Of a stretch of DNA of 64,000 bases, positions 28,919 through 31,223 are shown one piece after another. Both the position numbers and the translations under genes were made by a program. The notes under the pieces were generated by a model that saw only the letters and a list, made by a program, of their open reading frames with translations, was not told the DNA's origin and made no database searches. Every line of letters starts with the position of its first letter. The first letter of the stretch is position 1. This DNA comes from Escherichia coli (GTDB taxonomy: Bacteria > Pseudomonadota > Gammaproteobacteria > Enterobacterales > Enterobacteriaceae), in assembly GCF_045037415.1 (NCBI RefSeq), contig NZ_CP173438.1; one strand, written 5' to 3'.

Positions 28919-29152
28919 TCAGAGGATGGTACCGCCTTTGGTTAACTGTTCGTGGCGCGCTTCCATATCTTCTTTATGTTTGCGACCGTGATGAGCAATA
29001 GCGGTGCGCAAACGCTGCTGCAGGGTGTAGCGATCTTCCCGACTTAACTCCGCGTCATCGCTCAGGGCGATTAATAATTCGTTCATATGGGCAATGACGC
29101 TCTCTTCAATCGCGGCATCCACGCGCGCGATGACTTCATCCAGATGCGACAT
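28919..29152 (-). CDS. ydcY: Small conserved protein YdcY (77 aa)
   Basis: ORF 28919..29152. Confidence 0.78.
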   Translation of the reverse strand: MSHLDEVIARVDAAIEESVIAHMNELLIALSDDAELSREDRYTLQQRLRTAIAHHGRKHKEDMEARHEQLTKGGTIL

Positions 29153-29237
29153 ACTTTCTCCTTAGCCACTTGTGAAATTTATCGATTCATCCAAATGATA
29201 TAAGTCTGCGTGGTGCCGTCAAGCCAGTGCATAAGAT

Positions 29238-29411
29238 TTAAAACAGAGAAAACAACAGCGCCACCGGGAAACTCATCGGCCATGTTGCCCCCACCAGAAA
29301 GGCGCTTAAGAGACGGATGCGTTTCTTATCATGAGAAAGAAACCAGGTGATAAGAAATGCGATTGCTGCCATAACCGCATAGAAAACAAGCATGTGTTGA
29401 TAGAGAGACAT
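29238..29411 (-). CDS. ortT: Orphan membrane toxin OrtT (57 aa)
   Basis: ORF 29238..29459 trimmed to MSLYQHMLVFYAVMAAIAFLITWFLSHDKKRIRLLSAFLVGATWPMSFPVALLFSLF; single-TM small toxin. Confidence 0.78.
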   Translation of the reverse strand: MSLYQHMLVFYAVMAAIAFLITWFLSHDKKRIRLLSAFLVGATWPMSFPVALLFSLF

Positions 29412-29606
29412 GTACGGGCGTCCAGCCAGATGAATAAAACGCGCGCAAATATGCGTCATTTTTTGACGTGCATCAAGTTTTTTTCACCAGTTTGAGAAAA
29501 AATCATCAAACAGCAACTTGCCCTTATCCATCTTCAGAATGAGTATTATTGCGGATTTTCTTAACCCGTACTATACACATAGGGGCAATGATAAAAGGTG
29601 GCAAAA

Positions 29607-29702
29607 ATGAATGTTTCCAGTAGAACTGTAGTACTGATAAATGTCTTTGCTGCTGTTGGTTTGTTTACTCTTATCTCTATGAGATTTGGCTGGTTTATTT
29701 GA
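29607..29702 (+). CDS. yncL: Small membrane protein YncL (31 aa), not in ORF track (under 60 aa)
   Basis: ATG 29607 preceded by aaggtgg SD; translation MNVSSRTVVLINVFAAVGLFTLISMRFGWFI*. Confidence 0.7.
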   Translation: MNVSSRTVVLINVFAAVGLFTLISMRFGWFI

Positions 29703-29724
29703 TGTAGTGATTTTGCACGCAGCA

Positions 29725-29759
29725 CGTACTGTCAGAGAAATCAGTGCTCTGACAGTACG
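29725..29759. terminator. Perfect 13-bp inverted-repeat hairpin between convergent yncL and patD
   Basis: cgtactgtcagag-aaatcagtg-ctctgacagtacg; no strong U tract on either side, so function as terminator is tentative. Confidence 0.4.
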
Positions 29760-29798
29760 CAAGATCATCTCATACTCTTACGATCTGCAATATTATCC

Positions 29799-31223
29799 TT
29801 AATGTTTAACCATGACGTGGCGGACGACGGTGTAATCCTCCAGCCCATAAAGTGACATATCCTTGCCGTAACCAGAAAGTTTCTGCCCACCGTGCGGCAT
29901 TTCACTTACCAGCATGAAATGGGTATTGACCCAGGTACAACCATATTGCAGCCGCGCGCTGACGCGATGCGCCCTGCCCACATCTTTCGTCCATACCGAA
30001 GATGCAAGTCCGTACTGACTGTCATTCGCCCAGTTCACCACCTGTTCTTCGCTGTCGAAGAGCGTAACACTCACTACCGGACCAAATACCTCTTTTTGCA
30101 CGATGGCATCATCCTGTAATGCGCCAGCCAGCAGCGTCGGCGCATAGTAATAGCCATTACCCTTGCGCTTTTCACCGCCAGTGATCACTTTGATGTGCCC
30201 TGTCGCTTTCGCCTCTTCTACCGCCTTGCTGACGCGTTCGAGATGCGCCAGCGAGCTTAAAGGTCCAAGCTCCGTAGACTCGTCATCCGGCGAACCCGAT
30301 TTTAACGTTGCCACCGCAGCACCGAGTTTTTCCACCAGCGTATCGTAAATGCCTTTTTGCGCGTAGATCCGACAAGCCGCAGTACAATCCTGTCCGGCAT
30401 TGTAATAGCCAAAAGTACGTACACCTTCGACCACAGCTTCAATATCCGCATCATCAAAAACAATCACTGGCGCTTTGCCACCAAGTTCCATATGAGTACG
30501 CTTAATGGACGGCGCGGTATGGCTGATGATGTGTTCCCCAGTGGCGATAGAACCCGTCAGCGACACCATCCGCACTTTGGGATGTCCGGTCAGCGGATCG
30601 CCCACCGTTTTGCCTCTGCCAAACAGCACGTTAATCACGCCAGCCGGGAAGATATCTTTCGCCAGCTCTGCCAACTTCAACGCGGTCAGCGGGGTAATTT
30701 CTGATGGTTTAAGCACTACGCAGTTCCCTGCCGCCAGCGCCGGAGCCAGTTTCCACGCAGCCATCATCAGCGGATAATTCCACGGTGCGATAGAAGCCAC
30801 GACCCCCAACGGATCGCGACGGATCATCGAAGTATGACCTTCAAGATATTCACCTGCCGCCAGACCATTCAGGCAGCGCGCCGCACCGGCGAAAAAGCGA
30901 AAGACATCGACAATCGCCGGAATTTCATCATTGAACGCACTATGCAGCGGTTTGCCACAATTACGGGACTCCAGTTCGGCAAAAACCTGACCATTTTCTT
31001 CGATAACATCAGCCAGTTTCAGCAGGCATTCCGCACGCGCTTTTGGCGTGGTTTGCCCCCATTCGGCAAATGCTGCATCTGCCGCGCGCACAGCAGCATT
31101 GACCTGCTCTGCGGATGCCTCGGCAATCTCCAGTAAAACGTCCCCCGTTGCCGGATTATAGACAGGCTGTTTTTCCCCTTCGCCGCTAACCAGTTCTCCG
31201 TTAATCAGTAACTTATGTTGCAT
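29799..31223 (-). CDS. patD: Gamma-aminobutyraldehyde dehydrogenase (474 aa)
   Basis: ORF 29799..31223; aldehyde dehydrogenase catalytic motifs (ELGGKAP, GQDCTAA). Confidence 0.92.

Follow-up and report, generated by a model that had tools for sequence, protein, structure and literature searches.

The perfect 13-bp palindrome downstream of yncL in Escherichia coli is probably the protective 3' stem-loop of a yncL mRNA that is terminated mostly by Rho, an arrangement described for a class of transcripts by Dar & Sorek (PMC6061677). We read the palindrome in this way because the features of the locus, together with a C/G bias in the downstream sequence, are those reported by these authors in 2018. 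According to this prediction, the palindrome would act as RNA, on the yncL strand, as the terminal stem-loop of a yncL mRNA of ~180 nt that is induced in stationary phase. RNAP would run through the hairpin, because there is no U tract to release it, and Rho would then load on the untranslated, C-rich RNA past the hairpin and halt transcription within a few hundred nt, antisense to the end of patD. The tail would be trimmed by 3'-to-5' exonucleases back to the base of the hairpin, where the structure would block them, so that the message would be stabilised and its mature end would lie 3 nt beyond the stem.

The locus comes from a 64-kb window, i.e. the whole stretch of E. coli DNA that was analysed. 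The 701 bases around the palindrome match E. coli chromosomes with 100% identity and occur in 5415 of the 5426 complete E. coli genomes, and the RefSeq genes on the identical DNA are ydcY, ortT, yncL and patD. The orientation of MG1655 is opposite to that of the window, such that the K-12 position equals 1546801 minus the window position, which was verified at both ends of yncL. The features discussed below are collected in Table 1.

Table 1. Features of the ortT-yncL-patD region, in window coordinates
Feature	Position	Strand	Description and source
ortT (ydcX) CDS	29238..29411	-	57-aa GhoT/OrtT-family membrane toxin; ORF list, RefSeq, Pfam
Predicted yncL promoter	29549..29577	+	-35 TTGCGG 29549-29554, 17-nt spacer, -10 TATACA 29572-29577
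yncL Shine-Dalgarno sequence AAGGTGG	29595..29601	+	5 nt 5' of the ATG; sequence
yncL CDS	29607..29702	+	31-aa stress-response membrane protein; ORF list, RefSeq, NCBIfam
yncL 3'-UTR terminal hairpin	29725..29759	+	13-bp perfect stem 29725-29737 / 29747-29759, 9-nt loop 29738-29746
C-rich, G-poor tract, candidate rut region	29760..29806	+	Contains the conserved GATC..TC.CACTC block; putative rut role
yncL RNA 3' end, steady state	29762	+	MG1655 1517039 (-); Adams 2021 Term-seq (PMC7815308, Supplementary file 1)
patD (ydcW) CDS	29799..31223	-	Gamma-aminobutyraldehyde dehydrogenase, convergent neighbour; ORF list, RefSeq
Bicyclomycin-sensitive (Rho) termination region, peak coordinate	30048	+	Antisense in patD; MG1655 1516753 (-); Adams 2021 Supplementary file 2

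An earlier, sequence-only reading of this DNA had described ortT and yncL as a divergent pair of genes for proteins of 57 aa and 31 aa, the latter with a strong aaggtgg Shine-Dalgarno sequence, and the coordinates, the RefSeq annotation and the profile matches all agree with this description. OrtT matches the Pfam family PF10753 GhoT/OrtT with an E-value of 6e-28 (97.4 bits, cut-off 22.1), and YncL matches the NCBIfam equivalog NF000537 with an E-value of 2e-20 (72.5 bits, cut-off 35). It was also correctly noted that the ORF list holds ortT only as a longer artefact: the 73-aa version is an in-frame extension that begins at the upstream ATG 29459. Both YncL and OrtT have been reported as membrane-depolarising or membrane-damaging proteins (PMC4344625, PMC12542507). 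The sequence AAAGGTGG at the Shine-Dalgarno site is conserved in all orthologous yncL loci except that of Superficieibacter. Inside the ortT CDS we observed a second 13-nt inverted repeat (window 29319-29360, GCGTTTCTTATCA / TGATAAGAAATGC, 92% complementary) and a terminator-like call on the - strand (29380-29357), both of which could be due to chance.

The hairpin lies inside the 96-bp spacer between the convergent genes yncL and patD. Its arms, CGTACTGTCAGAG and CTCTGACAGTACG, are complementary in 13/13 nt, and the entire window contains no other perfect inverted repeat with arms of 13 bp or more and a loop of 3–20 nt; the chance expectation is 0.01 (mean of 100 dinucleotide-preserving shuffles). 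This bears out the repeat reported by the sequence-only reading. Folding of both strands, one of three checks proposed there along with 3'-end mapping and conservation of the palindrome, gave a stable structure on each, with -21.6 kcal/mol for the + strand and -22.5 for the - strand (z about -5.5 and -5.8, respectively; 0/200 shuffles as stable), and the hairpin is retained in both the MFE and the centroid folds of the predicted 180-nt yncL transcript. In the yncL-sense tail, CAAGAUCA, U makes up 1 of 8 nt, and the U-tract score is 0.11 compared to 5.1 for a run of T8; counted on the two strands, the first 8 nt past the hairpin contain 1 and 3 T, and a scan for consensus terminators made no call at the palindrome. 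The earlier remark that a strong U tract is missing was therefore right for both strands. The combination of a G+C-rich hairpin and a U tract, which defines the canonical intrinsic terminator, is found on neither strand, and a U tract is present only in the Salmonella orthologue. A search of window positions 29150-29900 on both strands with Rfam covariance models yielded 0 matches at E <= 1.

A precise RNA end maps to this hairpin. In the Term-seq data of Adams 2021 (PMC7815308), the yncL-sense 3' end is located 3 nt past the last base of the stem, so that the RNA reads ...CAGUACGCAA-3', and the flanking sequence printed for MG1655 1517039 is exactly the yncL hairpin. The mean number of reads at this end is 75,265 in LB at OD 0.4 and 536,300 in LB at OD 2.0, i.e. 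7-fold higher. The table contains the coordinate once more, and we take this third occurrence to be the entry for M63, the only remaining sheet. In the published table this end is labelled just "antisense patD" (PMC7815308); the label results from the classification, which has a limit of 50 bp between peak and gene end that is exceeded by the 60 nt between this peak and the yncL stop. No other 3' end is listed in the same study on either strand between MG1655 1517000 and 1517199 in the three conditions, in which patD may be poorly expressed, and nothing in the data for these conditions thus points to a patD-sense end at the hairpin. The 3'-end mapping proposed earlier is in this way answered by published data for one strand, with the yncL-sense end 3 nt past the stem, and fails to reveal the patD-sense counterpart. 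We also considered an outer helix GUGAUUUUGC/GCAAGAUCAU on the + strand, and rejected it as lying outside the mature RNA: it is absent from one other Escherichia locus (L003), and most of its 3' strand lies beyond the RNA end at 29762. As a separate observation, RIL-seq and TRIC-seq papers pair the yncL mRNA (29583-29762) with the sRNAs RprA and KilS.

Transcription of the yncL strand continues beyond the hairpin and is sensitive to inhibition of Rho. For the region that peaks 286 nt past the hairpin, Adams 2021 (PMC7815308) reports upstream/downstream reads of 220/9 in untreated cells and 106/72 with BCM, giving a Rho score of 16.6 (p 5e-21); the score is calculated from 800-nt windows and its position is accordingly coarse. 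It indicates Rho-dependent termination on the yncL strand and gives neither the fraction of RNAP that passes the hairpin nor the promoter from which this RNAP started, which we infer to be that of yncL. According to ExcludonFinder, the convergent transcripts of patD and yncL overlap in at least half of 58 transcriptomes of MG1655. The supplements of TERMITe contain no entry at the locus of the yncL hairpin, and a literature search linking ydcW to bicyclomycin found nothing. The composition of the RNA past the stem is compatible with a role as a rut site: C/G is 2.4 in the first 50 nt (12 C and 5 G in 29757-29806) and 1.1–2.0 over the following 450 nt, antisense to patD, compared to 0.45–0.85 in yncL through the hairpin. 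The tract may be regarded as a candidate rut region, with the reservation that its excess of C over G is modest and that coding sequence of patD extends into the region.

Dar & Sorek 2018 (PMC6061677) described Rho-dependent transcripts with precise 3' ends just past stable stem-loops that lack U tracts, with a mild excess of C over G downstream, for which termination by Rho is diffuse and is followed by trimming to the stem-loop by PNPase and RNase II. The yncL transcript resembles members of this class in having a stable stem-loop immediately before a precise 3' end, no U tract, a mild excess of C over G downstream of the hairpin, and bicyclomycin-sensitive read-through into a convergent gene. 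It differs from them in that trimming by PNPase and RNase II was demonstrated for the class, whereas at yncL it is a prediction drawn from this resemblance.

If the palindrome belongs to the yncL transcript, it should be of interest with which of the neighbouring genes it has been inherited. Loci from many Enterobacterales were gathered by a patD-based scan, with one genome per species, and by OrtT-based contig look-ups; as YncL is shorter than 40 aa, OrtT homologs served as the anchor for the locus search. Genes for yncL were found in clades of Escherichia and in Salmonella, Citrobacter, Intestinirhabdus and Superficieibacter, divergent from ortT wherever the flank was long enough, and the divergent pair is thus kept in these genera (window 29238-29702; L021, L083-L090). 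Beside ortT of Enterobacter, Kosakonia, Buttiauxella and Dryocola, yncL was undetected in the loci examined. The hairpin is located 25–35 nt past the yncL stop in every locus from Escherichia, Citrobacter and Salmonella, regardless of the gene that follows, and it adjoins yncL even though patD is 1.3–2.3 kb away in an E. coli locus with a CatB-like gene (L002) and in four loci from Citrobacter (L005, L007, L008, L089). Where patD does not adjoin yncL, it has downstream hairpins of its own, unrelated to that of yncL. In the representative of Escherichia albertii (L004 3925-4981), a canonical terminator belonging to patD itself, AGCTGGAATAT...ATTCCAGCTATTTTT, lies past this gene, and neither yncL nor ortT was found in about 1 kb of flank. 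Tandem paralogs of ortT were observed in Enterobacter sp. Bisph1 (L006 5611-6048), a soil MAG (L012 5597-6015) and Kosakonia oryzendophytica (L091 1501-1943).

Comparison of the homologous stems reveals paired substitutions. Relative to CGTACTGTCAGAG of E. coli, the Escherichia locus L003 has CGCACTGTCAGAGA, with a U-A pair changed to C-G, Citrobacter has CTGGCAGAGAGA, with U-A changed to G-C, and Salmonella has TGTTGGCGGGGAGG. In an alignment of 11 sequences (A1), 85% of the cells form pairs, as compared to 34–49% in slid controls, changes on both sides are found in 8/16 pairs, and the covariation score was reached by 0/500 shuffles. The loop varies among the genera in both length and sequence. 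Counts of G-U pairs, used as a test of the strand on which the structure operates (9 for + and 8 for -), are uninformative overall; the only informative ones are the two G-U pairs found within the helix on the yncL-sense strand in two sequences from Salmonella. Thus, conservation of the palindrome extends well past strains of one species: it is kept with yncL across three genera by compensatory changes. Different structures follow yncL in the remaining two genera, namely one with a subsequent U run in Intestinirhabdus, and a GC-rich hairpin with a C-rich tail lacking a U run in Superficieibacter.

The Salmonella yncL transcript was first catalogued as the sRNA STnc1110, a discrete, sigmaS-dependent species of 195 nt (PMC4014581, PMC5437024). 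It resembles the yncL RNA of E. coli as an orthologous short sigmaS-dependent transcript that encodes YncL and ends at the homologous hairpin, and differs from it in the GC-richer stem (TGTTGGCGGGGAGG / CCTCTCCGCCGACA), the 4-nt loop and the U tract behind. The hairpin is extended by outer GCG/CGC bases, which are followed by CUAUUUUUUCA containing the U tract, and in the locus L083 the 93 nt of the ORF, 79 nt of 3' UTR and a leader of about 22 nt fit the length of 195 nt. These lengths agree with an end at the hairpin and U tract, and the Salmonella hairpin thus has the appearance of an intrinsic terminator and probably works as one. Judging from the sequences, the mode of termination appears to have drifted between genera while the 3' hairpin stayed. 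In view of the U tract in Salmonella, some partial intrinsic activity may also exist in E. coli.

Within E. coli, the exact 41-nt hairpin allele of the window was found in 4284 records and a second allele in 1026, together 98% of 5412. The two have identical arms and differ in three adjacent loop bases, a change of GTG to ACT by which one A-U pair is gained; the loop reads AAATCAGTG in the former, which includes K-12 and the window, and AAATCAACT in the latter. The form AAATCAACT is probably ancestral, as it matches other clades of Escherichia (L087, L088). Two rarer variants were sampled, one with a loop change and one with changes at the base of the stem. An origin as a REP or other dispersed repeat was considered and rejected, as the palindrome occurs in a median of 1 place per genome and in two at most (5411 genomes).

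In about 1/5 of the complete E. coli genomes, the yncL hairpin and patD are separated by an AT-rich insert of ~1.3 kb, a fraction estimated from 827 + 212 records that are 80–95% identical in the spacer, together with partial matches. This insert contains a gene for a CatB-related O-acetyltransferase (L002 3640-4975), its junction corresponds to window positions of about 29780-29800, and its flanks are imperfect direct repeats CTTAAT(A/G)TTTA(C/A) that include the region of the patD stop. In Citrobacter (L005, L007, L008, L089) other genes are found at this junction, in L089/L090 a gene for an AraC-type HTH_18 protein and an MFS gene, and these loci retain the same short remnant, ATTATCCTTAAT, beside yncL. 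The junction between yncL and patD has the look of a site of repeated insertion. In the conserved ATTATCCTTAAT block, a GATAAT on the - strand that resembles a -10 element was considered as a possible antisense promoter and rejected; the block is more simply explained as the patD stop region or its remnant.

The region upstream of yncL is consistent with the behaviour of the transcript in stationary phase. The -10 hexamer of the predicted promoter is preceded by C and thus forms the sigmaS-like CTATACA; from this promoter the transcription start site would be expected near 29582-29585. The block TATTGCGGAT-N-CCGTACTATAC(A/C)CATAGGGG (29549-29585) is almost invariant in Escherichia, Citrobacter, Salmonella and Intestinirhabdus. 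A -10 element of the CTATAC type fits both the 7-fold higher Term-seq signal at OD 2.0 and the sigmaS dependence of the orthologue from Salmonella (PMC5437024, PMC4014581).

On the other side of the intergenic region, the leader of ortT contains a small GC hairpin, ACGCAUAUUUGCGCGCGU, at 29439-29456, between an A run and a U run, with the ATG 29459 of the 73-aa ORF at its foot. Adams 2021 (PMC7815308) lists a 3' end on the - strand at window position 29444 (MG1655 1517357, +), 32 nt 5' of the ortT start, with a Rho score of 0.52 ("No") and an intrinsic-terminator score of 3.18, values that point to attenuation or early termination of the toxin mRNA. Our terminator scan called this palindrome on the opposite strand. 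A block AACTTGATG..GTCAAAAAA..GAGCATATTGCGCGCGTTTT upstream of ortT (about 29462-29490, -) is conserved from Escherichia to Kosakonia and decays in Buttiauxella, Dryocola and Intestinirhabdus (loci L083-L093 compared); it reads as TTGATG-N17-CATATT, a putative sigma70-like promoter that overlaps the leader hairpin. Promoters for sigmaE and sigmaH were predicted in PMC4344625.

It is possible, if rather unlikely, that the hairpin is the terminator itself: a non-canonical, U-tract-less or factor-assisted one, perhaps bidirectional and shared by yncL and patD, as the sequence-only reading had suggested, or a site at which convergent RNAPs collide. This would suit its position in a 96-bp convergent spacer, its equal folding on both strands, the lack of any other strong structure past the stop codon of patD in E. 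coli, the sharpness of the yncL 3' end and the U tract of the orthologue from Salmonella. The yncL hairpin also resembles canonical intrinsic terminators in its size and energy and in ending a short transcript; those of E. coli, other Escherichia and Citrobacter, however, have no U tract, and read-through of the yncL strand in E. coli is sensitive to Rho. In intrinsic termination, release is expected about 7–9 nt past the stem, as opposed to the 3 nt found here. Nevertheless, a 13-bp hairpin may pause or partly terminate RNAP, and the yncL 3' end could in part be a direct product of termination. Bidirectional terminators between convergent genes were reportedly described by Ju et al. in 2019. 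A preprint by Wang et al. 2022 (bioRxiv 10.1101/2022.10.23.513370) reports that stem-loops determine where RNAPs from convergent genes collide, and a single hairpin in a short convergent spacer is common to such sites and to yncL, but here the 3' end at the hairpin is mapped on one strand only and there is no symmetry of A-tract and U-tract. The reported overlap of convergent transcription argues against termination at the hairpin as well. Furthermore, the hairpin segregates with yncL and not with the gene pair, remaining beside yncL in the loci where patD has been displaced. The earlier suggestion of a bidirectional terminator is supported insofar as the hairpin is a transcript-end element for yncL; for patD, no sense end is listed at the hairpin in the three conditions, in which patD may be poorly expressed.

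We consider it very improbable that the 3' end is made by endonucleolytic processing of a longer transcript by RNase E or RNase III, with the hairpin acting solely as a determinant of processing or stability. Such processing would accord with the altered abundance of the yncL mRNA in RNase E and/or RNase III mutants reported in PMC3082872, and with an extra STnc1110 species of 120 nt in late stationary phase of Salmonella (PMC4014581). The convergent overlap with patD could also form double-stranded RNA. A stem of 13 bp, however, counts as short for RNase III, and this explanation is largely compatible with a protective stem-loop on a Rho-terminated mRNA, from which it differs in the first cut only. 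The least credible proposal, to which we assign hardly any weight, is that yncL, patD or both are controlled through the palindrome as DNA, either by a dimeric regulator that binds there or by a cruciform. The perfect dyad symmetry of the palindrome would agree with this, and the outer half-sites TACTGT / ACAGTA resemble those of LexA, but the spacing from CTGT to ACAG is 19 nt and not the 8 nt of LexA, and the half-sites are not kept in Citrobacter (CTGGCAGAGAG) or Salmonella (TTGGCGGGGAGG), and so a LexA box (CTGT-N8-ACAG) was rejected. More generally, pairing is maintained by double substitutions while the loop varies in length and sequence, the site is located at the 3' ends of both genes, and an RNA 3' end maps to it; the cross-genus comparison of stems, loops and half-sites contradicts the "protein-binding site" offered as an option by the sequence-only reading. 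Like REP/BIME elements, the hairpin is an extragenic palindrome that follows a gene and could protect mRNA from exonucleases; it is distinguished from them by its single copy per genome. To our knowledge, there is no similarity between the yncL palindrome and the REP consensus.

A further, rather doubtful extension of the protective stem-loop is that the hairpin and the Rho-controlled read-through together constitute a regulated excludon, or, in a variant of this idea, that the hairpin positions head-on collisions between RNAPs transcribing yncL and patD. If true, a fall in Rho activity or strong, sigmaS-linked induction of yncL in stationary phase would give rise to transcripts antisense over at least the last 250 nt of patD and lower the expression of this gene of putrescine catabolism, and the hairpin would set the share of transcripts that is kept as stable yncL mRNA.

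The importance of the finding is modest: the hairpin is an ordinary transcript-end structure rather than a new regulatory device, it belongs to a class that has been described well, and a published table already contains its 3' end without comment. Nonetheless, our analysis offers a function for a highly conserved palindrome that had no annotation, and identifies the end of the yncL mRNA as the source of a very strong Term-seq peak labelled "antisense patD". It also provides an example of a 3' hairpin that has been retained by compensatory evolution, with a U tract in Salmonella and none in Escherichia and Citrobacter. For research on YncL and OrtT, it implies that the yncL transcription unit is ~180 nt long and that read-through from yncL is to be expected antisense into patD.
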